Origin: an uncultured Ardenticatenia bacterium
Lineage (GTDB): Bacteria > Chloroflexota > Anaerolineae > 4572-78 > NAK82
NCBI GenBank assembly: GCA_937127125.1
Contig: CAKZLO010000010.1
Span: 50,097-114,096, forward strand
Length of the DNA: 64,000 bases
Direction of reading: 5' to 3'
The translations under genes and the position numbers were made by a program. Below the pieces are notes generated by a model, which saw nothing but the letters and a program-made list of their open reading frames with translations, was not told the DNA's origin and did not search any database. Positions 5,366-55,468 of the stretch are shown piece by piece (position 1 is the first letter of the stretch; the number at the start of each line of letters is the position of its first letter).

Positions 5366-6807
5366 AGTTAGCAGTGGCCAAGCAAGGCTTGCCTGAAAGG
5401 TGTATACATCTGGTCGGCATCGGGGGGGCTGGTCTTTCCGCGATTGCCCGCGTATTGCTGGCGCAGGGATATCGCGTGTCCGGAAGCGATTTGCAGTCTT
5501 CCGAGATGACTCGACAGCTGGAAGCGATGGGTGCTGTGGTCTATATCGGTCACTCAGCAGATCACCTGGGTGCAGAAGAGAATACAGATCTAGAAGCTGT
5601 GATCATCTCCTCTGCCATTGCGGCGGACAATCCAGAAGTGTTAGAAGCACATCGCCGTGGCGTGCCGGTGTACAAACGGGCAGAGTGGCTGAGGCGTATG
5701 ATTGCTCAACAGCATCTGCGTTGCGTGGCTGTTGCAGGTACCCATGGCAAGACGACCACTACTGCTATGATCACGTTGATTGCACATCGAGCTGGTCTGC
5801 AGCCTACTTTCATCGTAGGAGGTACACTGAGTCAGCTGGGTACGAACGCTGGGGCAGGATCCGGCAATGTATTCGTCGTAGAGGCTGATGAGTATGATCG
5901 TATGTTCTTGGGTCTGTACCCAGAGATCGCTGTGTTAACTACAGCGGAGTGGGATCATCCTGATTGCTATCCCACGTGGGAGTCTATGCAGGAGGCCTTC
6001 GTCCAGTTTGTTGAACATATCCCTCAAAAGGGCTGGTTGGTTGCATGTGTAGACGACAGAGGTGTGTGTGAAGTGGTCGAGCGTGCCCGTCACAGCCATC
6101 GGCTATTTGCACAGCTGAACACCTATGGGTTGACACCCGAGGCTCATTGGCAAGCGAAGAATCTGAGCGCGAACGAACATGGTGGTTACGACTTTGAAGC
6201 GGTAAGTGGCGGACGTACTGTAGCAAGGGTCTCATTGCAAGTGCCAGGGATTCACAACGTGCGAAATGCACTTGGCGCTATGGCAGCGGCAGACCATTTG
6301 GGAGTAGATCTCCAATGTACAGTTGACACCATCTCTAACTTTACAGGCGTTGCACGCCGTTTCGAGCACAAGGGCGAGGTTGGTGGGGTGACCGTGCTAG
6401 ATGACTATGCTCACCATCCTACCGAAATTCGGGCCACTTTATCAGCCGCGCGAACGATGTATGGAGGGCGTCCGTTGTGGGCTGTGTTCCAACCACATAC
6501 TTACTCGCGCACGCGGGTGTTACTGGACGATTTCGCCCAGGCATTTGGAAACGCTGATCATGTCATAGTACTTGATGTTTATGCTGCCCGTGAGGCTGAG
6601 GACGAGGAAATTAATGGTGCGCTTGTTGTGAGGCATATGAGTCATCCTGATGCGCACTACGTGGGGCAGATAGAACAAGCAGCTGAGTACGTGCTGGAGC
6701 ATATTGAGCCTGATGCTGTCTTGATCACAATGGGTGCAGGTGATGGCTATCGGGTGGGAGATCTGGTGCTCGAAGGACTGAGATGCCGTGTGCAACAACG
6801 AGCATAA
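5362..6807 (+). CDS. murC: UDP-N-acetylmuramate--L-alanine ligase MurC
   Basis: HLVGIGGAGLSAIARVL...SGSD N-terminal domain and GTHGKTTTT P-loop. Start is ambiguous: TTG 5362 lies only 2 nt after AAGGAGG (5353-5359), and GTG 5374 is in frame. Confidence 0.9.
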   Translation: MKLAVAKQGLPERCIHLVGIGGAGLSAIARVLLAQGYRVSGSDLQSSEMTRQLEAMGAVVYIGHSADHLGAEENTDLEAVIISSAIAADNPEVLEAHRRGVPVYKRAEWLRRMIAQQHLRCVAVAGTHGKTTTTAMITLIAHRAGLQPTFIVGGTLSQLGTNAGAGSGNVFVVEADEYDRMFLGLYPEIAVLTTAEWDHPDCYPTWESMQEAFVQFVEHIPQKGWLVACVDDRGVCEVVERARHSHRLFAQLNTYGLTPEAHWQAKNLSANEHGGYDFEAVSGGRTVARVSLQVPGIHNVRNALGAMAAADHLGVDLQCTVDTISNFTGVARRFEHKGEVGGVTVLDDYAHHPTEIRATLSAARTMYGGRPLWAVFQPHTYSRTRVLLDDFAQAFGNADHVIVLDVYAAREAEDEEINGALVVRHMSHPDAHYVGQIEQAAEYVLEHIEPDAVLITMGAGDGYRVGDLVLEGLRCRVQQRA

Positions 6808-7771
6808 TGCTGACACGTTGCCCCTTGGTCTAGCTCCAAACGTTGCAGCGTTGGGAGCCGATCTGCAAGCCATATTTGGCGACCGTGTGCGCCGTCACGA
6901 ACCTATGGCGTTTCACACTTTGCTGAGAGTGGGCGGCCCGGCTGATCTGTGGCTCGTAGTCACCGCGTTAGATGAGCTGATCACCGCGGTACAGCTGGCG
7001 CGACAGCATCGTTGCCCGGTGCTGTTAGTGGGGAGCGGTGCTAATTTGTTGGTGAGTGATAAGGGAGTGCGTGGGCTCGTGCTGCACAATCGCTGTGAAG
7101 GGACCATTTTCGTAACCGATGATGAGCAACCTCGTGTGACGGCACTCTCCGGGACTCGGCTGAGCTCTCTGGCGCGCAAGGCTGCTCATCACGGGCTGAG
7201 TGGCCTGGAGTGGGCAATAGGTGTGCCGGGTACTCTAGGGGGTGCGCTGATCAATAATGCTGGCGCTTTTGGCAGCTGCATCGCAGATTGCCTTGTTCAA
7301 GCCGAGCTGCTTACCTCCACCGGGGAGCGCCTGTGGCGATCGGTGGAGTGGTTTGGGTATACGTATCGGTCGAGTCGCCTGAAACGTGAGACAGCGGAGA
7401 CGTCGATCTCCTTTGTTGTGCTACAGGCCGAACTTCGCCTTAACCGTGCATCACCAGTGGAGATTGAGGATCGAATGTCTTTGTTCGACGCACAGCGCAG
7501 ACGCAGCCAGCCGAATGGTGCCAGTTTGGGCAGTATGTTCAAGAATCCTCCGGGCGATTATGCCGGACGCCTTATTGAGGCTGCTGGATTGAAAGGAACG
7601 CAAATCGGGGGAGCGCGCATTTCTGAGCAGCATGCGAACTTCTTCTTGAACATAGGTGGGGCGCGTGCTGCTGATTTTGTTGCTCTCATTGAGCTCGCAC
7701 GGGACGAAGTGCGAGCAAGATTTGGCGTGGAGATGGAACTGGAAATTCAGCGGGCAGGAGAGTGGGGGTGA
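6788..7771 (+). CDS. murB: UDP-N-acetylenolpyruvoylglucosamine reductase MurB
   Basis: FAD-binding MurB pattern (HTLLRVGGPADLW, GSGANLLVSD, C-terminal GSMFKNPPG...ISEQHANF). GTG 6788 has GAAGGA 10 nt upstream. Confidence 0.9.
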   Translation: MCNNEHNADTLPLGLAPNVAALGADLQAIFGDRVRRHEPMAFHTLLRVGGPADLWLVVTALDELITAVQLARQHRCPVLLVGSGANLLVSDKGVRGLVLHNRCEGTIFVTDDEQPRVTALSGTRLSSLARKAAHHGLSGLEWAIGVPGTLGGALINNAGAFGSCIADCLVQAELLTSTGERLWRSVEWFGYTYRSSRLKRETAETSISFVVLQAELRLNRASPVEIEDRMSLFDAQRRRSQPNGASLGSMFKNPPGDYAGRLIEAAGLKGTQIGGARISEQHANFFLNIGGARAADFVALIELARDEVRARFGVEMELEIQRAGEWG

Positions 7772-8913
7772 CCAGTACAGATAGCAACACAGCACGTGTG
7801 CAGCCGCGGAAGCTGCGAGTGGGAATTCTCTTTGGGGGTCGCTCTGGCGAGCATGAGGTAAGTCTCGTTTCGGCTCGTGGGATCATCGATGCTATTGATC
7901 GTGAGCGCTATGAGATCGTGCTGATTGGGATCACTCGTGAAGGTCGGTGGGTTGTGGGAGGTGATCCGTTGGAAGCCCTTTCTACAGGTCAGGGCGCAGA
8001 AGACTTAAGCACGGTAAGGGTCTCGCTTGAACCAGGCACCAGCTTTAGAGGAGACTTCTCCATTAAGGAGCTGCAACTACAGGACCTGGATGTCATCTTC
8101 CCTGTCCTGCACGGTCCGTACGGTGAGGACGGTACGGTACAGGGCTTGCTCGAGGTTCTGGCTATACCATATGTGGGAGCCGGTGTGTTAGCAAGCGCGG
8201 TTGCAATGGATAAGGCGATCGCCAGACAACTATTTGTCGCCAATGGGCTGCCTGTGTTGCCGTATTGCGTTTTCCTGAGTCGTTCGTGGAAGTCACGTCC
8301 AGCGGATGTGATCACCGAGTGCGAGCGGACGCTGCAGTATCCGATGTTTACTAAACCTGCCAACTTGGGGTCGAGCGTAGGTGTGAATAAGGTGCGTAAT
8401 CGCACTGAACTTGAGGCAGGATTGGATGAAGCGGCTCGCTACGATCGCAAGATAATCGTGGAGCAGGGTATCGAAGCACGTGAGATCGAAGTGAGTGTCT
8501 TGGGGAATGACACACGTATAGTCTCAATGCCTGGGGAAATTATCCCTTCCCGTGAATTCTACAGCTATGCTGCCAAATACTTGGACAATGCTTCTCAGTT
8601 GCTGATCCCGGCACCGCTGTCGTCCCGAGAGGTGCAACATGTTCAAGAAATTGCGCTCAAGGCTTGTGCTGCTGTGGACTGCGCCGGCATGGCGCGAGTG
8701 GACTTCCTAATGGACAAGCGCACTGGGGAAGTATGGCTAAGTGAGATCAACACAATCCCTGGTTTCACTCCTATCAGTATGTATCCCAAGCTGTGGGAAG
8801 CAAGTGGTATCAGCTACTCTGAGCTCATTGATCGCTTGATTCAGTTGGCATTGGAGCGGTTCGAGGATCGTCAGCGTTGTGTGACACGTTTTGATCCATC
8901 ACGAGCAGCATAA
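7768..8913 (+). CDS. ddl: D-alanine--D-alanine ligase
   Basis: LRVGILFGGRSGEHEVSLVSA N-terminus and ATP-grasp C-terminus (MARVDFLMD...LSEINTIPGFT). GTG 7768 forms a GTGA overlap with the murB stop and lies 7 nt after AGGAG. The ORF is also open from GTG 7762. Confidence 0.9.
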   Translation: MTSTDSNTARVQPRKLRVGILFGGRSGEHEVSLVSARGIIDAIDRERYEIVLIGITREGRWVVGGDPLEALSTGQGAEDLSTVRVSLEPGTSFRGDFSIKELQLQDLDVIFPVLHGPYGEDGTVQGLLEVLAIPYVGAGVLASAVAMDKAIARQLFVANGLPVLPYCVFLSRSWKSRPADVITECERTLQYPMFTKPANLGSSVGVNKVRNRTELEAGLDEAARYDRKIIVEQGIEAREIEVSVLGNDTRIVSMPGEIIPSREFYSYAAKYLDNASQLLIPAPLSSREVQHVQEIALKACAAVDCAGMARVDFLMDKRTGEVWLSEINTIPGFTPISMYPKLWEASGISYSELIDRLIQLALERFEDRQRCVTRFDPSRAA

Positions 8914-45323: not shown

Positions 45324-46259
45324 TCAACGTGGCGTTTCAATCAAGAAATAGATCTCCAGTTCGACGTTGCCGCGATTAGCACGATTGGGGTCAATAGTGT
45401 GATAGTCACGCAGAATGGCCCCTTCGAAGATCTCGGGAAATGCTTCAACTAACACACGGTTGACCTCACGAGCGATCCTATTCCCTTCAAATGGATCTGG
45501 TGAAACGCCAAAGGTTAGCACAATACCTGCGCGGCGCGATCTGAGGGCAGCCAATCTCTCTCGTATCTGAGCGCGCACCTGCTCAACAGCGCGTGCTTTT
45601 TCCTCCCCAGCCGGTGACAACAGTGCGTCTGCATTGGTCACCAAGGTAATCGTCGAGGAACGCGCATCAAGCCCAGTACGGGGTAGCGGTGTATGCGTAG
45701 GCAGCGGTCGCGGTGTCGGCCACGGAGTGTAGGTCGGATACGGTGTCGGTGTTGGGCCTGGCGTATAGGTCGGGTAGGGGGTGGGTGATGGCCCTGGCGT
45801 ATAGGTTGGGTAAGGGGTCGGCGTCGGCCCTGGCGTATAGGTTGGGTAAGGGGTCGGTGTCGGCCCCGGTGTGTAGGTTGGGTAAGGGGTCGGTGTTGGG
45901 CCTGGCGTATAGGTTGGGTAGGGGGTCGGCGTCGGCCCCGGTGTGTAGGTTGGGTAAGGGGTCGGTGTTGGGCCTGGCGTATAGGTCGGATAGGGTGTGT
46001 AGGTTGGTCCTGGTGTGTAAGTCGGATAGGGTGTGAAGGTTGGGCCAGGAGTAAACGTAGGATATGGTGTTGGTGTTGGGCCAGGTGTATATGTCGGATA
46101 TGGCGTCGGCGTGGGACCGGGTGTAGGTGTCGGCCGTACACCAACTGTGTTAAATACGAAAAACAACATAGCTAGCCCAAGCAGCAGATCGGCAAACAAC
46201 CACCCTGCTAGGGCGATGGTATCACGATAACGTGAACGACGCGGTACCCGGATGGTCAT
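45324..46259 (-). CDS. Membrane-anchored protein with long Pro/Thr/Tyr repeat rod and ~115-aa C-terminal domain (unknown family)
   Basis: Basic N-terminus plus one TM (IALAGWLFADLLLGLAMLFFVF). Residues 42-193 are PT-rich, with 11 copies of PGPTPTPYPTYT. A unique C-terminal domain follows. ATGA overlap with the upstream gene's stop. Confidence 0.7.
   Translation of the reverse strand: MTIRVPRRSRYRDTIALAGWLFADLLLGLAMLFFVFNTVGVRPTPTPGPTPTPYPTYTPGPTPTPYPTFTPGPTFTPYPTYTPGPTYTPYPTYTPGPTPTPYPTYTPGPTPTPYPTYTPGPTPTPYPTYTPGPTPTPYPTYTPGPTPTPYPTYTPGPSPTPYPTYTPGPTPTPYPTYTPWPTPRPLPTHTPLPRTGLDARSSTITLVTNADALLSPAGEEKARAVEQVRAQIRERLAALRSRRAGIVLTFGVSPDPFEGNRIAREVNRVLVEAFPEIFEGAILRDYHTIDPNRANRGNVELEIYFLIETPR
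45726..46121 (-). repeat. Coding tandem repeat, 11 x 36 bp (PGPTPTPYPTYT units)
   Basis: A 36-nt period is visible directly on the plus strand, e.g. ggccctggcgtataggttgggtaaggggtcggcgtc repeated with few substitutions. Degenerate copies flank the core. Confidence 0.9.
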
Positions 46260-48016
46260 CGCAGCACCGGGAGTAATCCGATTAAGAGCAGAATGTAGGC
46301 ACCTGCCCCGACGCCCAGGCCGAAGCCTAGACCGATGCCCAGGAACAGCATTCGCGAGCGCGGCGCCGGCGTTGAGTAAGCCGGCTTACCCCGATACAAG
46401 AGCAAACGTGCACCCATCTGATCCGGGCTGCTGACCACCTCGCTAAGGCGGCGGGCCTGTTCGGACAGCAGGTCTATCGCTCCGCGCAAATCGTTGGTGA
46501 CAGGCTGCAGTTCGCGGAATGTGATACCGGCTGTCTCGGCAGCGCTGCTCAGGTTGTCGGAGACGCGAACAATTTGCCCTGCAGATTGGGCGAGTTGCTG
46601 GGCTAAGCTGGCTTGCGACTGAATTGCTCGTGTCAGTTCGTCTGTTACATGAGCAAGAGCAGAGATCGTCTGTTGGTTTACAGTGGCAGTACTTTTGAGC
46701 TGGCTGATGGCTTGGTAGGTTGTGGCGCTCAAGTCTTCAGCAGATCGCGACATCTGCTCGGCAGACTGGGTAAGTTGGCGGGACATTTCAGCGTTTGATT
46801 GAATGAGTCTTGTCAACTCCGCGACCGCCTGACGCAGCGTCGAGGCAGCAATCTGATTGATGCTAGTGGTGTCGCGGAACTCACTTGTGGCAGTCTGCAG
46901 ATTGCGTGTGATTTCGCGGTTCGTTTCGCGTGTTTCCAGCAATGCGCGCCGCAACGCGGTATCTTCCTCCACCAGACGTGATGCCAAGTCACGCATCTCG
47001 TCTATGGCTGCAGCTAGACCGGTGATGTTATCGCTGCTACGCGATGCAGCTATCCCTAGTTCACTGACCGCTGTGGCTAGGCTCTGACGCAGTACGCGCA
47101 CTGCCTCTGCCATTTCATGTGAGCCGATGTCGGCCGAATCCAGTGACCTGAGTAGTAACTCTTGCTGCTGGCCTACACGTTGAATCTCATCCGAGAACCG
47201 ATCAATCGAGCTCTGCAACCGTTCATAGACTTGTTCCACTGACTGCCCGTATTGGGTAAGCTTGGTGGCTGCTTCGCTCACCAAGTGCAGATGGTCGAGC
47301 TCTTGTTCACGTGAGGCTGCAATGCTTTCAAGCCGTTGACGCTCAGCGAGCATCAGGTCGAGCAGCTCATTAGCGTGGATGCGAAAGCGATCGACAGCCT
47401 CGCCCATAGTGATCGCTACTTGGTTGATGTCCTGATTGCTACGTTGTGCAGCGATATACCGGTCCAGATCCCAAATAATCTCTTCTACCTGACTGCGCAG
47501 CGTAGCGGCCTCTCGCTCAGCGCTCGTCTCTTGAACATCACGCCATCGGTGCACTACCACTGTCAACGCAATGACAACAAATAAAACGATGAAGTCCACG
47601 AGTGCTAATTCGCTGAATGTCGGCCCATGGCGTGCACCTAGTTCCTGAAAACCACGTTCCCAAAGTAGCAGAAAAGGCTGGTCCACCAGCTCCGGGTAAA
47701 GGGTGATGACCCGGTCGTAGTTAGCACTTGCCTGGGACAGACCAATCCACGTAAATGCAATTGGAAAGAGCACGAGTACATTGCGTAGCCATTCCACCCA
47801 ACTTAAATAGCTGGGTCTGCGCTGTACGACGACACGTTCCTCAATCCCTTGTGGATCCAAGATAGCACGTGCGTCGAGATAGGCCAGGTCACGTCGTGGG
47901 GGGACTTCTTCCAGCGCAGCCTTAATGTCACGCAGACGACGGGCGGCGTCACTGTCGACCCTCTCCAATTGTATTGCAAGTGACTGGATCTTGGCTGATA
48001 GATCAGAATTACTCAT
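46256..48016 (-). CDS. Polytopic coiled-coil membrane protein (unknown family)
   Basis: ATG 48016 is preceded by AAGGTAAGGTGAG. N-terminal coiled coil, two TMs (VLVLFPIAFTWIGL, LVDFIVLFVVIALTVVV), about 370 aa of Gln/Ser/Ala/Leu-rich helical sequence with an internal ~50-aa duplication, and a C-terminal Gly-rich TM (LFLGIGLGFGLGVGAGAYILLLIGLL). Confidence 0.65.
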   Translation of the reverse strand: MSNSDLSAKIQSLAIQLERVDSDAARRLRDIKAALEEVPPRRDLAYLDARAILDPQGIEERVVVQRRPSYLSWVEWLRNVLVLFPIAFTWIGLSQASANYDRVITLYPELVDQPFLLLWERGFQELGARHGPTFSELALVDFIVLFVVIALTVVVHRWRDVQETSAEREAATLRSQVEEIIWDLDRYIAAQRSNQDINQVAITMGEAVDRFRIHANELLDLMLAERQRLESIAASREQELDHLHLVSEAATKLTQYGQSVEQVYERLQSSIDRFSDEIQRVGQQQELLLRSLDSADIGSHEMAEAVRVLRQSLATAVSELGIAASRSSDNITGLAAAIDEMRDLASRLVEEDTALRRALLETRETNREITRNLQTATSEFRDTTSINQIAASTLRQAVAELTRLIQSNAEMSRQLTQSAEQMSRSAEDLSATTYQAISQLKSTATVNQQTISALAHVTDELTRAIQSQASLAQQLAQSAGQIVRVSDNLSSAAETAGITFRELQPVTNDLRGAIDLLSEQARRLSEVVSSPDQMGARLLLYRGKPAYSTPAPRSRMLFLGIGLGFGLGVGAGAYILLLIGLLPVLR

Positions 48017-48104
48017 GCTCACCTTACCTTTCGATTTGGAACGCAGCACGCGTGTTTTGCCTCTGCCGCTGTGTTGGCTTGTGAGACCTCAGGATATAAG
48101 AAAA

Positions 48105-49391
48105 TCATTCTCGCTCAGTCCGCGGCGTTACCATCGAGGACAAATGCTGACGCACTAATGTGATGCGTTCATCGTCCCCAGATCTAGTCGCCCACAGCAA
48201 GCGCGAACGAGCGCCTAACCTTTTCTTAGCACTTGCAATGCGTTCGCGTTCCTCTGGTGTCACCAGCTCAGGAAATCGTTCCAACGCTAGTTCGCCCAGG
48301 CGCACAATGTCCTCATCGTTTGTGATTGGATAGTACAGCGTAGCGCGAAAGCGCTCAAGTAGTACCAGCTGCTGTTCCGCTTTTATGAGCGCTTCTCGAT
48401 CTATCCCAGCAGGTACACTAACGCGTGCCTGTCGAAGCGCTCGATAGGCATCTACAATGCGCACGATATCACCACTTTTCCAGGCTTTGATCAACAGGGC
48501 TTGATAGCGAGCATCCTCGATCCGCTGTCTCTGCTGTGCGGTCAATAGTGAGGATTGGTCCAGCAGCTCTGCATCGTAGGCATCCAGGATGTGCTGCGGG
48601 TCGTCTGTCTGTAGTGCCTGTTGCAAGCGCTCATATGCTTGTACACGTTGCAGGGCCAGCTCGCAACGGGCACGTTGCTCAGGGCTCATTAGCGTGAACT
48701 GCTCGAATAAAGCGGGATCATACAGTGAGGCAATGCGACGATCATCCTCTCTGTCTAACGCTAGTTGGAGCAACTGCCAGCGATGCAGTCGGTCCTGTGC
48801 CTGACGCACACGTTTCTTCTCCTGAACAGATACCTGACGACAATTGTCCAACAGCTCGGCATTGTACGCTTGCACGATTGCAATGTCATCATCATCTTGG
48901 ATAGCCTGTCGCAGCTGATGTAGTGCTGCAATAGTCTGGCGTGCGCGCTCCACAGCAAGATATTGTTCATGGGAGAGCTGGCATCCGCCCTCAGCAGCGC
49001 TACGGCCGGCACGTTCGATCCATACGATATCGCCAACGCGCATTGCCATTTCTAAGTCACGCAACAAAAGAGCACGCCTGGCCTGCACTACGCGCTGCCG
49101 TTCTTCCCGGGTGAAGTTCCGACACCCCTCCAGTACATCGGCATGCTTTAGATAGGCGCGCATAATGCCATCGGGTGACTGGCGTGCGATTGCGTCCCTG
49201 AGCTCGGTCAATGCTTGCACACGTTCGAACGCCAAGGTAATCCGCTTTCTTTCTTCCTCTGAGAAAGCATGTAGAAGCCGTTCGTTGCCGCGGCAAAGGT
49301 TTACGATCTGCTCGTCATCCCCTGAGAAGATAGCTGCGCGAATACGTTGTTCAGGTGCAAGCTCTGAGGGTGTCTCTTGTTCTCTGTCCAT
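48105..49391 (-). CDS. Soluble protein built from ~8.5 tandem ~48-residue helical repeats (unknown family)
   Basis: Repeating pattern L..A(I/L)..(G/D)DD..I...Y....L......(S/T).E(E/Q)(R/K).R...A..R, with anchors at D25, D74, D121, D168, D217, D264, D308, D360 and D406. No TM segment. Confidence 0.65.
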   Translation of the reverse strand: MDREQETPSELAPEQRIRAAIFSGDDEQIVNLCRGNERLLHAFSEEERKRITLAFERVQALTELRDAIARQSPDGIMRAYLKHADVLEGCRNFTREERQRVVQARRALLLRDLEMAMRVGDIVWIERAGRSAAEGGCQLSHEQYLAVERARQTIAALHQLRQAIQDDDDIAIVQAYNAELLDNCRQVSVQEKKRVRQAQDRLHRWQLLQLALDREDDRRIASLYDPALFEQFTLMSPEQRARCELALQRVQAYERLQQALQTDDPQHILDAYDAELLDQSSLLTAQQRQRIEDARYQALLIKAWKSGDIVRIVDAYRALRQARVSVPAGIDREALIKAEQQLVLLERFRATLYYPITNDEDIVRLGELALERFPELVTPEERERIASAKKRLGARSRLLWATRSGDDERITLVRQHLSSMVTPRTERE

Positions 49392-49883
49392 TATGACGGT
49401 TGCCTACCCGATGTACGCGAGACCATTGAACTTGGCTTGCCTCTTCAGCAAAACAAACAGGTCATAGCTCGACAGCCCTACAAGACCAGTGACTGAATGG
49501 AAAAAGCAGAGGGGAGCTGACAAGGTCACAGACCATCCCGAATCCCACGTGACCTAGGCATTGTAGACAATATGCCCAAGGCGGAACGTCAGACACTTTA
49601 GCCCCAATTCTACATATCGCTATTATAGCACTCACACGCTAGGCGTCAAGCGAAGTTGTGAAGCAATGTAATAAGGTCTATCCGCTTGCAGAGCAAGTGG
49701 AATGGAAGCAAAATGCCATTGTGTTGAATCAGGTTCTTGTACTTGTCTGGTAGGTGGGAAGAGATTGCAGTCAACCCTGCTGTGGTACTAGGTCAAGTCC
49801 TGACATAGCTGCCAGTTGTCCATGTTCCCCATCTGGTTGTTCGGGGAAGCATGGCTGTCTAAACTGCAGAGGGTATCTGGACG

Positions 49884-49937: not shown

Positions 49938-50795
49938 ATGCGGTGGGAATTGGTTCTTTGGGCAATCCTTGGTCTGGTTCTAATTGTAACACTAGGGATT
50001 GTATACGGTAGATTGCGGTGGGAAGCGTTCACGAATGAGCTGCACGCACAGCTCGAGGCGGGCCGCATACCGAACTCACCTGAGACATTTGACAGGCGCG
50101 AGCTTGAAGGCCTGCCTGTGCCGGTTCAGCGTTATTTTGACACAGTGCTCCGGGAAGGACAACCCATTGTGAGTGCCGTCCAAGTGGAACACGTGGGGAC
50201 TTTCAATATGAGCGAAAGTGGCGAGCAGTGGAAGTCTTTTGGGTCGCGGCAGCGGGTCGTCACGCAGCGGCCGGGCTTTGTTTGGGATGCTCGAGTTAGG
50301 ATGATGCCCGGAGTTGTGGTCCACGTCCACGACGCGTATGTGGGAGGCAAGGGTGTCTTGCATGCCGCTTTGCTGGGGCTGGCAACCGTGATGGAGCTGC
50401 CAAGCACGCATGAGCTGGCGCGGAGCGAGCTCATGCGTTTCTTTGCTGAGTCGGCTTGGTACCCCACGGCACTCCTGCCCAGTCAAGGGGTGCGATGGGA
50501 GGCGATCGACGATGTGTCAGCCAAAGCAACTATGACAGATGGCGACATAACACTAACCATGTCGTTTCGGTTTGATGAGGCTGGATTGATCGAGTCAGTG
50601 CGTGCTGAAGCACGAGAGCGTATTGTTGGGAGCGCGGTGATTCCTACACCATGGGAGGGACGTTGGCGAGACTATGAATGGAGGAGTGGGATGCTCGTCC
50701 CACTCGAAGGCGAGGTAGCTTGGCTGCTGCCTGAGGGAGCTCACCCGTATTGGCGTGGGCGCATTACAGCTCTCGCGTATGAATTCGTGCACTAG
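49938..50795 (+). CDS. Conserved-looking hypothetical protein with N-terminal TM anchor (possibly DUF6544-like)
   Basis: N-terminal TM WELVLWAILGLVLIVTLGIVY, then LEGLPVPVQRYFDTVL. I vaguely associate this motif with DUF6544, so the family call is weak. Clean ORF with RBS. Confidence 0.6.
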   Translation: MRWELVLWAILGLVLIVTLGIVYGRLRWEAFTNELHAQLEAGRIPNSPETFDRRELEGLPVPVQRYFDTVLREGQPIVSAVQVEHVGTFNMSESGEQWKSFGSRQRVVTQRPGFVWDARVRMMPGVVVHVHDAYVGGKGVLHAALLGLATVMELPSTHELARSELMRFFAESAWYPTALLPSQGVRWEAIDDVSAKATMTDGDITLTMSFRFDEAGLIESVRAEARERIVGSAVIPTPWEGRWRDYEWRSGMLVPLEGEVAWLLPEGAHPYWRGRITALAYEFVH

Positions 50796-51004: not shown

Positions 51005-51322
51005 AAGCTTTTGCAAATGCGGAAGAGCCCATAAAATAACTAAGTAGCGATTGAGTTGTTCTTTTCTGACCACAAGTTTAGAATCGCTTGGTGAAGCAAA
51101 GTCGTCAAGCGCAGCCCCAAGGAAGAGGAGACTAGGCCATTTCAGTCCCTTCTCGTCTTTCGTTTTGGACCTTTCTGTAATGGCAGTGGAGTTTACAGCT
51201 TGTAGTCGTTGGGCTAGTGAGTGAATGTCACTGCGCGTTTATTTATCTCTGTTTTTCAGTTCTTGTTCAGGTAATGTGTGAGTGGGGATCAGTACCACTT
51301 AGGTGAGGAGTGGAAAAAGCTT

Positions 51323-54300
51323 ATGGCGCATGTAAGAGCATCCAAGAGCTATGCCCGTATTCCGGATGTGGTGGAGCTGCCGCGTCTGATCGAGGTGCAA
51401 ATTGAGTCGTTCCGCTGGTTCCGCGAGGAAGGGCTTAAGGAGCTGTTCCAGGAGATCTCACCCATTGTTAGTTTCAATAAGAACCTGGAGCTGCACTTTC
51501 TAGATTATCGCTTCGACGAGCCGAAATACTCAGAAAAGGAATGCCGCGAGCGAGATATGACGTTTGCCAGCCCGCTGTGGGTGAAGGTCAGGCTGGTAAA
51601 CAAAGAAACTGGGCAAATCATAGATCAAGACGTATTCATGGGGGACTTCCCCTTGATGACAGATAATGGCACCTTTGTGATCAACGGGGCCGAGAGGGTA
51701 GTGGTCTCCCAGCTCATCCGCTCACCCGGAGCATACTTTACAGTCGAAGAGGATCGGGTAACTGGACGTGGTCTGTGTTTCGCCAAACTTATCCCTAATC
51801 GGGGTGCTTGGCTGGAGTTTGAAACGTCCAAACGAAATGTGATCTCGGTCAAAGTGGATCGCAAGCGCAAGCTACCGGTGACCGTTTTGTTGCGCGCGGT
51901 GGGTTATGGCACTGACGAAGAACTGTATCGATTGTTTGAGACGGAGGATGTTCACTCTGACTACCACTATATCGAGGCTACCATTGAGCGTGATCCAACT
52001 AAGTCGGTGGAAGAGGCACTGCTGGAGTTCTACAAGAAGTTGCGTCCAGGTGACCCTCCCACTCTTGAAAATGCAAAGATGTTCCTCAATTCGTTGTTCT
52101 TCTCGCCTAGACGTTACGACTTGGGAAAGGTGGGACGGTACAAGCTCAATCGACGGCTCGATCCCTATAAGATTGAAGAAGCAGGGGGAGTGTTGGGTGA
52201 TCTGTTAGATCTGTTCGAGGTGTCCGAAACGGATATGGACCGGGCCGAAGCAATAGCGCTTGTACAAAGTGTGCAAAACCTGCCGGTGGACGAAGCTTTG
52301 GTCAAGATCTACCGGCGACTGTGCCGTCAGGAATCGGCCACGCTGGAAGAGGTGGAATCTTATTTGGCTAAGCGTCCTCTCGGCAAGGTGACTTGGTACC
52401 ATCTCTCCCGACGTCTCGGTCTTCACGAATCGCTTAATCAGCGTACGCTCACTCCCAACGACTTGGTGAAGGTCGTGGCCCATATGATCTTGGTGAACAA
52501 TGGTAGTGAGCGACCGGATGACATTGATCACCTGGGAAATCGGCGCGTAAAGACAGTAGGGGAGCTGATCCAAAATCAGCTGCGCATTGGTTTGTTGCGA
52601 ATGGAGCGGGTCATTCGCGAGCGCATGTCAATTCGCGATCCTGAGCAGGTCACACCGACCGCGTTAATCAATATCCGTCCGGTAGTGGCTGCCACACGCG
52701 AGTTCTTCGGCGGTAGTCAGCTTTCGCAATTCATGGATCAAACGAATCCACTCGCCGAGCTCACGCATAAGCGGACGCTGAGTGCATTGGGGCCGGGCGG
52801 TCTGCGGCGTGAACGGGCTGGTTTTGATGTGCGCGACGTTCATCATAGCCATTATGGTCGTATCTGCCCCATCGAGACCCCTGAAGGTCCCAATATCGGT
52901 CTCATCGGACGCCTTGCTACATTTGGGCGCGTCAATGAGTATGGCTTCATTGAGACGCCCTACCGCAAGGTGATTAGTGAGCTCTCACCTCAGGATGTGG
53001 ACAATCTGGTTGGTAAGGTGCTCCGTGAGTCAGTGGTAGATCCACGCACGGAAGAAGTAATCGCTGAAAAGGGCACTCAGGTTGATGAGGAGCTGGTAAT
53101 CCGGATTAGCCAGATTCCGCTAGAGGGAACGGTCAAGATCAGGCCTGTGGTGACCAATGAAATTGTATACATGTCGGCCGATGAAGAGGACCGATACACG
53201 ATCGCGCAAGCCAATGCCAAGCTGGATGAGAAGGGACAGTTTGTGGAACCACGCGTCAGCGTGCGGCGGCATCAAAGCTTCTTCCTGGAAAACGCCGAGC
53301 GTGTGGGTTACATGGATGTGTCGCCCAAGCAGATTGTAGGTATCAGTGCTGCCCTAATACCCTTCCTGGAGCACGATGATGCAAACCGTGCGTTGATGGG
53401 CTCGAATATGCAGCGTCAGGCTGTGCCGCTGGTACAGCCCGAAGCGCCAATGGTGAGCACTGGTATGGAGTTTCAAGCGGCTGTGGACTCCGGACAGGTG
53501 GTACTGGCGCGGGAGAATGGAAAGGTTATCAGTGTGACCGGCGATCGCATCGTGGTGCGGCGAGATGATGGCACGCTGGATGTCTATACGTTGCGCAAAT
53601 TCAATCGCTCCAATCAATCCACCTGTATTGATCAGCGGCCGATTGTACATAAAGGGGATTATGTACGTAAGGGTGATGTATTGGCCGACTCTAGCTCCAC
53701 AGAGTATGGAGAGCTGGCGCTGGGCCAGAATGTCTTATGCGCTTTCCTCAGCTGGGAAGGGGGCAATTATGAAGATGCCATCCTGATCAGCCAGGACTTG
53801 GTGCGCCGTGACAAGTTCTCTTCGATCCATATTGAGAAGCATGAAGTCGAGGCACGTGATACCAAGCTGGGACCAGAGGAGATCACGCGTGACATACCCA
53901 ACGTGGGTGAAGAGGCCCTTAAGGACCTGGATGAGGGAGGTATCGTGCGCATTGGCGCTGAAGTGCGCCCAGGGGACATCCTGGTAGGTAAGATAACCCC
54001 GAAGGGTGAGACTGAGCTCACTCCAGAGGAGAAGCTGCTACGCGCTATCTTCGGCGAAAAGGCACGTGAGGTGAAGGATTCCAGCTTGCGCCTTCCGCAT
54101 GGCGAGAAGGGCATCGTAGTGGATGTACGTGAGTTTAGCCGCGAGGAACATCGTGACCTGCCTGCCGGTGTGGATAAGATGGTGCGCGTAATGGTCGCCC
54201 AGCGACGTAAGATCACTGAAGGTGACAAGATGGCTGGCCGTCACGGTAATAAAGGAGTGATCTCTAAAGTAGTGCCTGTCGAAGACATGCCTTTTATGGC

Positions 54301-55468
54301 AGATGGTACTCCAATCGAGATTATTCTTAATCCGCTGGGTGTGCCGGCACGTATGAACATTGGCCAGATTCTGGAGACCCATCTGGGTTGGGCTGCCTCG
54401 CGTCTGGGGTTTCAAGCGATTTCCTCCGTGTTCGACGGTGCGCGCGAGGATGAGATTGCTGCTGAGCTGGCCCGGGCATGGTTGATCGATCACGCGTGGC
54501 GTATCGTAGCCGAGCGCGCTTGGACCTGGTTCCTGGAGCAGAATGAGATCTTAGCTGAAGATGTAGAAGACGAAAACGAAGTGATAGCCCTGTATCTGGT
54601 GCGCTGGCTGGGTGAACAGGGATATGATCCAGAGCGACTCGCGACCGATCAGGTCTATGCTCGGCGCGCAGTGCTGCGCGAGTGGCTGCGCGAGCGTGGC
54701 TACGACCCCGACTTCTTGCTGGCTTTCGAGGGCGCGCGCCGTGCTGAGGCATTGGGAGTACAGGCACGTGAAGCAGTGCGCATTGCTTGCCTGCGAGAGT
54801 GGCTGCATTTCGTGCGCGGGGAGCGCGAGCGCAACCCCGATCCGCGTTACGCTCGGTTGCCGCAGGAACTATTGGATGCCGACCTCGAGAAGATGAGTGC
54901 AGAGGAAGTAGATCTGTTGGCTGTTGCCTGTATGCGAGCAGCAGACATACCGATGCCTACCACTGGCAAGATGATCCTCTATGACGGCAAGACAGGAGAG
55001 CCGTTCGATCAGCCGGTCACAGTAGGGGTCATCACTATGCTGAAGCTGGCGCACCTGGTCGAGGACAAGGTGCACGCGCGTTCCACTGGTCCGTACTCAC
55101 TGGTGACGCAGCAACCGCTGGGTGGCAAGGCCCAATTTGGTGGTCAACGTTTCGGTGAGATGGAAGTCTGGGCGCTCGAGGCTTATGGCGCAGCGTACAC
55201 CTTGCAAGAGATGCTTACCGTTAAAAGCGACGACGTGACGGGACGCGTGAACACCTACGAAGCGATCGTGAAGGGCGAACCAATTGAGGAACCAGGCATT
55301 CCCGAGGGGTTCCGCGTCTTGGTCAAGGAGCTGCAATCGCTTGGTCTGGCAGTGGAAGTCATCACGGACAATGAGGAGCGGATCCAGTTTGGCAAGGAAG
55401 ATCAGAAAGAGAAGCCTCCCAAGCTGGGCCTGGGATTGGGCCTCGATATGATGGCACCTCCGCGATAG
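51323..55468 (+). CDS. rpoB: DNA-directed RNA polymerase subunit beta
   Basis: Full set of beta conserved regions ([119 protein letters not shown]). ATG 51323 lies 12 nt after GGTGAGGAG. The ORF is also open from GTG 51278. Confidence 0.95.

Follow-up and report, generated by a model that had tools for sequence, protein, structure and literature searches.

Stator-type membrane complexes combine a polytopic with a single-pass protein, and among the homologs of these complexes the polytopic gene is followed by the single-pass gene (PMC12505986). An aspartate of the single-pass subunit, Asp26 in ZorB of the Zorya system and Asp22 in Campylobacter jejuni MotB, is universally conserved and essential (PMC11946911, PMC9389320), the essential Asp of Escherichia coli MotB being D32 (PMC9389320), and in ZorA a filter of Thr147 and Ser184 faces the Asp (PMC11946911). 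ZorAB is an anti-phage motor of 5:2 stoichiometry that senses perturbations of the envelope and sends its signal by way of a cytoplasmic tail (PMC11946911). GldLM, the motor of type IX secretion and gliding, likewise has 5:2 stoichiometry; in sequence it is not homologous to MotAB, and a long tail extends from its outer subunit into the cytoplasm (PMC9389320). Here we describe an operon-like locus of three genes, referred to as A, B and C, on the minus strand of a stretch of 64,000 nucleotides (nt) from an uncultured Ardenticatenia bacterium of the Chloroflexota (assembly GCA_937127125.1, contig CAKZLO010000010.1, positions 50,097 to 114,096); "the window" below is this whole stretch. The conserved core of the locus is the pair formed by B and C, which belong to two families that carry no annotation. 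By analogy with ZorAB we suggest, tentatively and at somewhat less than an even chance, that the pair may be a stator-like, wall-tethered and ion-conducting sensor or transducer.

The B-C pair and its conserved residues

Gene A (48105-49391) encodes a soluble helical-repeat protein of 428 amino acids (aa), the predicted cytoplasmic partner of B. Gene B (46256-48016) encodes a polytopic protein of 586 aa with cytoplasmic helices at its N-terminus, a transmembrane (TM) hairpin, a long helical tail and a C-terminal TM segment. Gene C (45324-46259) encodes a single-pass protein of 311 aa, in which a TM helix with its N-terminus inside and a buried Asp is followed by a Pro/Thr/Tyr rod and a distal alpha/beta domain of 116 aa. 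An earlier reading of this DNA, made before any database search, had proposed three co-directional minus-strand open reading frames (ORFs) of these sizes across 45324-49391, an 88-nt gap between A and B and an ATGA stop/start overlap between B and C, and all of this is borne out. The spacer occupies 48017-48104 and holds a ribosome-binding site, AAGGTGAGC, ahead of the ATG of B; the overlap, as read from the sequence, lies at 46256-46259. The longest ORF of B starts at a GTG at 48049 and has 597 aa. Because the ATG at 48016 carries this good Shine-Dalgarno sequence just upstream, and because the orthologs that we retrieved are exactly 586 aa long, we take B to be 586 aa. The 4-nt overlap of B and C recurs in most orthologous loci and is also found in E. 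coli motA-motB, and no credible terminator was found between A, B and C. The sequence-only reading could not assign any of the three proteins to a named family. Our scans of Pfam, NCBIfam and PADLOC agree, A and C matching nothing and B only models of coiled-coil type, and sequence-profile searches of the PDB with alignments of A, B and C each returned nothing beyond coiled-coil or low-complexity noise.

The earlier reading had let its grouping of the three genes hang on synteny, and the A-B-C triplet is indeed kept in relatives with unrelated flanks. These have nothing in common from one sub-clade to another, being a branched-chain ABC transporter in one case, ETF genes in another and FBP aldolase with a PMT_2 glycosyltransferase in a third. 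The linkage of B to C is obligate: searched with purpose-built hidden Markov models on ORFs that we called ourselves, 43 of 47 sequences have a B-type gene immediately next to a C-type gene. B precedes C in most loci, and in Glycomyces C precedes B. The more distant relatives of B are 467-631 aa long, each followed by a C homolog of 190-210 aa with a linker of ~50 aa, and the short-linker homologs share a nearly identical TM segment, RDTxSLxGWLFADLLLGLxMxFxVFNT. A profile of C from which the rod had been trimmed gathered 89 clusters, with members as far afield as Glycomyces, Actinomadura, Streptomyces and a Propionibacteriaceae metagenome-assembled genome (MAG), and in species-representative genomes the C family has 32 loci, all in Chloroflexota or filamentous Actinomycetota. 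The B family is larger. An exhaustive HMMER search with its N-terminal module gave 970 representative clusters with E <= 1e-3, 504 of them with E <= 1e-10, and no Pfam model lies over this module in the 75 members sampled. The B module was not found in plasmid and phage collections. The A-B-C family as a whole is restricted to filamentous Terrabacteria. One public source names a Glycomyces member of the C family "Biopolymer transporter...". Two other members (P0073 and P0076) carry a precomputed Pfam assignment, PF27998, which we neither reproduced locally nor identified and which may be a very recent model of part of the family.

By hydropathy C has one TM helix, residues 16-38 (ALAGWLFADLLLGLAMLFFVFNT, 46146-46214), with a short basic N-terminus ahead of it, and charge counts predict that the rod and the distal domain are outside. 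Each of the 61 family members compared has G19, W20, A23 and D24; the Asp, encoded here at 46188-46190, has a median position of 22 from the N-terminus. Profiles of C were compared by hhalign with E. coli ExbBD, TolQRA and MotAB, and calibrated with 600 decoy ORFs and the seven references. The full profile aligned co-linearly and over the full length with ExbD (P 5e-4), all 11 other comparisons giving P values of 0.2-0.99, and on realignment the TM helix of C fell on that of ExbD and TolR, with D24 on ExbD D25 and TolR D23 (53% probability, E 1.4e-4). Among the 607 targets ExbD ranked 1, TolR 5, MotB 8 and TolA 314. A profile of the TM helix alone also aligned Asp on Asp, with P values of 4.2e-4 for ExbD, 2.1e-3 for TolR and 1.3e-2 for MotB, where reversed sequences and the TolA TM helix gave 0.08-0.57. 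In the MotB alignment D24 falls on D32 (AYADFMTAMMAFFLVM; P 0.013, reversed control 0.5). C is thus built like proteins of the ExbD/TolR/MotB class and has their signature TM helix, and by the usual criteria it is a member of none of these families.

Hydropathy gives three TM segments in B, at residues 80-98, 137-157 and 556-584, in agreement with the TM hairpin and Gly-rich C-terminal TM segment that the earlier reading had described, and positive-inside charge counts predict that the N-terminus and the long helical region are cytoplasmic. TM1 (47723-47779) has the invariant residues P85 and T89 and a near-invariant W90, with R78 and N79 at its cytoplasmic edge; R78, P85 and T89 are present in 116 of 116 diverse members, and the codons of the TM1 residues were verified. 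The loop that follows (residues 99-136, 47609-47722), placed outside the cytoplasm by charge counts, contains a PFLLLWxxGF motif; F115 and W119 are invariant and Y100 and F123 near-invariant. In TM2 (47546-47608) A138 is again invariant or nearly so, D141 is present in 106 of the 116 members (91%) and position 152, a Thr in the window, is Thr or Ser in 112 (97%). A conserved hydroxyl residue is therefore found in each helix of the hairpin, with an Asp also in TM2, and all invariant and near-invariant positions of B are confined to the hairpin and its loop. TM2 runs as one helix into the tail (residues ~158-545, 46382-47545), which charge counts and an AlphaFold2 (AF2) model describe as cytoplasmic and helical or coiled-coil. 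In the AF2 model, which is all-helical, one helix spans residues 134-236; the pLDDT of full-length B is 53.5 overall, too low for inferring its fold, and reaches 70-83 for residues 1-190 only. The Gly-rich TM3 (46265-46351) is a clade-specific accessory: only 32 of the 116 members have a hydrophobic segment at their end, and it is absent from the inspected actinobacterial members and from locus L009.

Some orthologs of B (P0011, P0013, P0015 and P0016) carry public names that appear to be misannotations driven by the coiled coil. "Methyl-accepting chemotaxis protein" (JGI) was rejected since there is no HAMP or MCPsignal domain in B or in the 75 members, fold matches to such proteins having E >= 0.34, and "chromosome segregation ATPase" since no SMC domain is detectable.

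The description of C in the sequence-only reading as an N-terminal TM anchor, a Pro/Thr/Tyr rod and a small globular end fits with its hydropathy, its composition and a confident fold. The distal domain (residues 196-311, 45327-45674) is modelled by AF2 as beta-alpha-beta-alpha-beta-beta with a pLDDT of 95.4 and a pTM of 0.86. Its best Foldseek match in the PDB is the C-terminal peptidoglycan (PG)-binding domain of an OmpA protein, 4rha_A (E 6.2e-4, TM-score 0.46), and OprF, AbOmpA, FopA1, RmpM, YfiB, PA0833 and the PG-binding domain of the MotB-like SiiA are further fold neighbours, so that on the model our best guess is an OmpA-like topology. At the level of sequence the domain has no match, a domain-only profile being at control level against the periplasmic domains of ExbD, TolR and MotB, and the 50 best fold matches include neither ExbD nor TolR.

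The rod (residues 42-195, 45675-46136) is made of hexapeptide and dodecapeptide Pro-Thr-Tyr-Gly repeats. Its 154 residues include 62 Pro, 49 Thr, 22 Tyr and 11 Gly (40% Pro, 32% Thr), and its DNA is a 36/72-nt tandem repeat with 80-86% matches. A long rod is peculiar to the window clade, the other relatives having the ~50-aa linker. Among close relatives the length of the rod varies in steps of 6 aa, C being 215, 287, 293, 299, 305, 311, 330 or 336 aa long (P0021, P0257, P0259 and P0260; L001, L003, L005, L006, L016 and L017), and another public assembly, in which A and B are 100% identical to those of the window, has a C of 287 aa against 311 aa in the window. This variation could be genuine, through repeat slippage or recombination, or could reflect a collapse of repeats in short-read assemblies. 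In four close relatives a gene of ~880 aa for a PMT_2 protein, like a protein O-mannosyltransferase, stands divergently beside A (L003 3177-5816, L006 1497-4133, L016 and L017); in the window this position is taken by an ORF of 285 aa (49938-50795), followed by rpoB. The Thr/Pro rod of C would be a plausible substrate for O-glycosylation.

Protein A and the genomic neighbourhoods

Protein A is the dedicated Chloroflexota partner of B. Only nine clusters of A homologs were found among 5.8 billion sequences, all from Anaerolineae-type MAGs, and on every contig that is long enough the A homolog is followed by a B of 586 aa and then by C, with the 4-nt overlap. The earlier reading had A consisting almost entirely of repeats of ~48 aa. 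The periodicity stands, self-similarity at offsets of 48, 96 and 144 residues having z values of 4.8, 5.6 and 2.8 against 200 shuffles; "almost entirely" is a slight overstatement, because there are five clear copies and about three degenerate ones. A has no TM segment by hydropathy, and no Pfam, NCBIfam, PADLOC or PDB-sequence match. Repeat proteins of the A type in a broader sense have 144-833 aa with 1-10 repeats; among ~2,600 ORFs no gene other than the one immediately preceding B was found to encode them.

Two variants of this arrangement were seen. A metagenomic protein of 784 aa (P0203) carries TPR repeats (residues ~150-300) on the N-terminal side of its B membrane module, the start of which is at ~335; this fusion is consistent with A, a separate helical-repeat protein, acting at the cytoplasmic N-terminus of B. 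At 5955-8324 of locus L019 an A-like protein of 789 aa upstream of B has a weak N-terminal match to protein kinases (E 1.6e-4, under the Pfam threshold), which hints that A-type repeats may be able to join a kinase-like domain.

In the window and in close relatives the triplet lies among housekeeping genes. Elsewhere the genes around B and C form recurrent neighbourhoods. In ten loci from nine actinomycete genomes three genes come after B and C on the same strand, for a standalone vWA protein (~220 aa), a PP2C protein (~545 aa) and a weakly kinase-like protein of ~318 aa, and in an Acidimicrobiia MAG (L029) the vWA, PP2C and kinase-like trio is about 5-6 kb upstream of B and C. In six loci B and C, together with a protein of ~740 aa, face kinase, PP2C, vWA-like and GAP1 genes on the opposite strand. 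In Chloroflexi bacterium 54-19 the order HNH-vWA-PP2C-kinase-A-B-C is found, with all genes co-directional. Tubulin_2 and large vWA proteins are encoded near B-C in L009 and L050, and CHAT with two HSP70 genes in L013 and L046, CHAT being present alone in L012 and L024; the association with CHAT and double HSP70 is real but rare, and so is not a core feature. BrxC/D and Cas3-like helicases are also among the neighbours of B-C relatives.

These neighbourhoods resemble two kinds of described system. GAP1-N2-type systems, which come in three themes (tubulin, HSP70 and kinase-PP2C-vWA), are predicted to serve multicellular bacteria as conflict systems, and the effector most often reported for them is a 2-TM pore former of the SLATT type (PMC7159879). 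The trio of vWA, PP2C and kinase is the TerY-P-type triad, hypothesised to be a phosphorylation switch, and TerY-P-related modules have been reported as stand-alone anti-phage systems (PMC11090510). Relatives of B-C lie in or beside all three themes: tubulin in L009 and L050, HSP70 in L013 and L046, and kinase-PP2C-vWA in 16 actinobacterial loci and in L023 of the Chloroflexota. A bias to multicellular or filamentous hosts is also common to these systems and to B-C. The A-B-C locus of the window differs in having none of those partners within 64 kb. The available parts of the two accounts make no mention of a B-C-like membrane pair (PMC7159879, PMC11090510), and we found no description of one in the wider literature.

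One locus stands apart from these. At 490-15820 of L007 at least 12 co-directional genes surround a triplet of an A-like protein (833 aa), B and C. They encode a Prok-RING_1 protein, two paralogs with its N-terminus and a TM segment (364 and 376 aa), several proteins without a match, a P-loop protein of 1139 aa weakly like HerA/DUF87 and a weakly YukD-like protein. The cluster looks like a larger uncharacterised system. A link to type VII secretion, to which the YukD-like gene might point, was rejected, as no FtsK/EssC-type ATPase is annotated there and only the weak HerA-like P-loop protein is present.

A stator-like reading and its rivals

We propose that B and C form a complex in the cytoplasmic membrane on the plan of the ion-driven stators ExbBD, TolQR, MotAB, ZorAB and GldLM. 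Several copies of B would surround, through their TM hairpins, single TM helices of C, and ions would pass by way of Asp24 of C, flanked by Thr89, Thr152 and Asp141 of B. The Thr/Ser and Asp residues of B are reminiscent of the Thr147/Ser184 filter of ZorA, by analogy only. C would reach out through its stiff Pro/Thr rod, and its distal domain would hold the cell wall or an outer layer. Through its N-terminal helices and its tail, B would pass on what happens in the membrane to partners in the cytoplasm, which are the repeat protein A in this locus and TerY-P-like vWA/PP2C/kinase, GAP1, tubulin-like or HSP70 modules in other lineages. The function of the complex may then be that of a wall-tethered sensor or transducer of envelope perturbation, like ZorAB. 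Assembly of the complex and its stoichiometry are inferences, as are the passage of ions, attachment to the wall, any rotation and the role in the cell.

The stator-like reading is supported by the adjacency of B and C in 43 of 47 sequences and in two phyla, usually with the 4-nt overlap and in the polytopic-then-single-pass order, and by the stator B-subunit architecture of C, with its invariant Asp and the Asp-on-Asp match of the TM helix. It is also supported by the OmpA PG-binding domain at the top of the fold list for the distal domain, with SiiA listed too, and by P85, T89, D141 and Thr/Ser152 in B, the TM2 of which runs into a long cytoplasmic helix. The signalling- or defence-like neighbourhoods, the precedent of GldLM and the "Biopolymer transporter" label point the same way. 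The best PADLOC hits of B are to ZorA models, which match its tail region only (32.5 bits, E 9e-9). Reversed B still scores 15.5 bits (E about 1e-3), also hitting the SMC-like JetC, and shuffled B scores nothing; a Nonomuraea homolog of B, with 29 bits against the ZorA tail, behaves in the same way. In both proteins the tail match is ~15 bits over the reversed-sequence control, an excess that again supports the reading.

A good number of results weigh against it. Since reversed B still scores, the resemblance to ZorA is of the tail type and owes something to bias in composition or periodicity. The core of B has two TM segments, compared with three or four in ExbB and MotA; its membrane module is at control level in hhalign against MotA, ExbB and TolQ, none of the 75 members matches MotA_ExbB in Pfam, and no PADLOC model matches the TM core. 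A Foldseek search with the low-confidence model of B gave nothing significant, the best matches being chemoreceptors (E 0.34), with ExbB and TolQ at E 1-9. The similarity of C to stator subunits is limited to about 20-35 residues of the TM region. The Pfam models OmpA, MotB, ExbD and MotA_ExbB match none of 62 C members, ExbD not even at E <= 1, and ZorB matches only two of the 62, with E >= 0.016. An 84% local hit of the full profile over 29 columns, between the distal domain and the periplasmic domain of ExbD, was rejected as not robust: a domain-only profile does not reproduce it and is at control level (P 0.067). The TM-scores of the OmpA-like matches are only 0.45-0.5, with the FtsZ C-domain and RusA scoring alike, and neither a conserved Asp/Arg PG-binding pair nor canonical PG-binding residues are evident in the alignment of C. 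Finally, 26 probe proteins from related loci (GAP1, vWA, PP2C, kinase and others) have no homolog in the window.

The likeness to ZorAB extends over both subunits. B, like ZorA, is a polytopic subunit whose cytoplasmic helical tail is very long and whose gene immediately precedes that of the partner, and has Thr/Ser in the TM helices of the outer subunit; C, like ZorB, is single-pass, with an invariant Asp buried near residue 24-26 and, outside the cytoplasm, a domain directed towards the wall; and B-C stands elsewhere beside defence or signalling genes. The differences are also clear. B has no match to the MotA-like TM core of ZorA and C none to the ZorB family; the core of B has two TM helices, with an optional C-terminal one, compared with TM1-MPCD-TM2-TM3 in ZorA; and C has a long linker or rod where the PG-binding domain of ZorB is fused without a linker, the domain of C being no detectable member of the OmpA family. 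There are no partners of the ZorC/D/E type beside A-B-C, and the hosts are Chloroflexota and Actinomycetota. In a search of the window for Zorya partners A had no PADLOC hit and the neighbours were housekeeping genes, and ZorF matched once in 62 C members at E 0.86, which is noise.

With ExbBD and TolQR the pair shares the Asp-on-Asp alignment of the C TM helix with ExbD and TolR, the gene order and the tight coupling, and C joins an ExbD-like helix and a TonB/TolA-like Pro-rich rod in one protein. However, there is no Pfam hit to ExbD in the 62 C members, B is not detectably like ExbB or TolQ, and a TonB or TolA encoded as a separate protein is missing, as is, probably, an outer membrane that could be energised. 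The host phyla, Chloroflexota and Actinomycetota, are generally regarded as monoderm, that is, without a classical outer membrane. MotAB of E. coli is alike in its 4-nt overlap and in having the polytopic gene before the single-pass gene. With GldLM and PorLM the pair shares the long cytoplasmic tail of the outer subunit and a single-pass inner subunit with a long extracytoplasmic shaft (PMC9389320). GldL and GldM did not turn up in general Pfam scans of A-B-C and family members, no targeted comparison having been made. GldLM uses different charged TM residues and is confined to Bacteroidota with a type IX secretion system (T9SS); the T9SS is absent here.

The pair could instead be a transmembrane receptor that does not rotate and carries no ion flux, with B, through its loop and a chemoreceptor-like bundle, as a sensor that relays to A or to the kinase, PP2C and vWA proteins, and C as a co-receptor in contact with the wall. 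The invariant aromatics F115 and W119 of the B loop would suit a sensor, as would the recurrence of Ser/Thr kinase, PP2C and vWA neighbours. The top fold matches of B, at noise level, are chemoreceptor coiled coils, and in the Chloroflexota clade the return of the tail to the membrane through the C-terminal TM segment would give a hairpin-like cytoplasmic bundle. That segment, and hence the hairpin geometry, is however absent in 72% of the B family, and B has no HAMP or MCPsignal domain. A receptor also leaves unexplained the invariant buried Asp of C and the buried Asp and Thr of B, as well as the Asp-on-Asp similarity to ExbD, TolR and MotB, and we regard it as unlikely.

The three proteins could also be a passive structural tether. 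C would join the wall or sheath to the membrane, and B and A would join the membrane to a cytoplasmic scaffold, for filament integrity or envelope spacing and with no signalling or ion transport. The restriction to filamentous or hyphal Chloroflexota and Actinomycetota favours this, as do the long, stiff rod of variable length, the housekeeping flanks of the window clade and the chromosomal-only occurrence of the module. The absolute conservation of charged and polar residues inside TM helices would be unusual for a mere anchor, and the tight association elsewhere with vWA/PP2C/kinase, GAP1, BrxC/D and CHAT genes points to regulation or conflict; a tether is in our view improbable.

We consider it decidedly improbable that the pair is a regulated membrane-permeabilising effector, in which the B hairpin, gated by C and by cytoplasmic partners, would form a pore that depolarises the cell, as the suicide or dormancy output of the conflict systems associated with it, like the 2-TM SLATT effectors that GAP1-N2 systems are reported to have. 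The 2-TM core of B with its buried polar residues fits such a role, and the module is embedded in neighbourhoods of the GAP1-N2/TerY-P type, for which a 2-TM pore former is the commonest effector reported (PMC7159879). Yet B has no Pfam hit to SLATT or another pore former, an obligate wall-directed single-pass partner and a tail of 240-400 aa are unlike the known small pore effectors, and throughout the Anaerolineae clade A-B-C stands alone among housekeeping genes.

That C is an energy transducer of the TonB/TolA type, spanning the envelope to act on an outer layer, is scarcely credible: it has the N-terminal anchor, Pro-rich rod and small C-terminal domain of such proteins, of which only the Pro-rich rod is common to both, but the analogy was rejected because TolA (rank 314 of 607) is at control level in both its TM helix and its C-terminal domain, because in C and the other family members Pfam detects neither a TonB_C nor a TolA domain and because the TM helix bears an Asp, as in ExbD, TolR and MotB, and no His or Ser-His motif, and against it stand too the lack of an ExbB/ExbD pair to work with (C itself being in the ExbD-like position), fold neighbours that are OmpA-like and not TonB/TolA C-terminal domains, and the monoderm envelope generally ascribed to the host phyla. 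It was from this analogy that the sequence-only reading had inferred that the set may span the envelope as a structural complex or as one that transduces force or signals, with a repeat scaffold in the cytoplasm. The analogy falls, and the complex and its scaffold are favoured by the synteny, the occurrence of A-type repeats only upstream of B and the predicted topology.

Other features of the window and the significance of the pair

A promoter-like site, TTGACG and TATAAT with a TG extension at a spacing of 16 nt, lies at 49622-49649 on the minus strand, ~230 nt upstream of A; as a consensus match only, it agrees with the hexamers at 11 of 12 positions and is the best in the region. The leader upstream of A has no significant structure (z = 0.57), no Rfam match and no riboswitch. 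No tRNA gene occurs anywhere in the window (1-64000), and no Rfam family reaches the gathering threshold in it. The C-terminal third of rpoB (51278-55468, plus strand, 1396 aa) has what appears to be a long lineage-specific insertion, at roughly residues 1040-1200.

Two sizeable unannotated protein families are now defined, B with ~970 representative clusters and C with 89, and they have clear signature motifs and an obligate genomic linkage. A bolder form of the stator-like reading, which we hold to be doubtful, is that B-C is an unrecognised class of ion-driven stator-type complex, 5:2-like, in bacteria that are filamentous and probably monoderm. The outer subunit, which like GldL would be unrelated in sequence to MotA and ExbB, would have a core of two TM helices and a long tail in the cytoplasm, and the ExbD-like axle, with a rod of evolvable length, would be tethered to the wall. 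The complex would be the envelope-sensing front end of TerY-P, GAP1 or tubulin immune or stress signalling, a Terrabacterial counterpart of Zorya, and A would be a cytoplasmic adaptor dedicated to it. The variation of the rod in hexapeptide steps might tune the reach of C across the envelope. If the stator-like reading holds, B-C would be a new branch of the ion-driven membrane motors, in phyla whose non-flagellar members of this group are essentially unstudied, and would indicate that an ExbD-type axle can pair with an outer subunit other than MotA or ExbB. It would also supply the missing membrane or envelope-sensing component of the predicted GAP1-N2 and TerY-P conflict systems, and would make their mechanism of activation testable in tractable hosts such as Streptomyces or Actinomadura.

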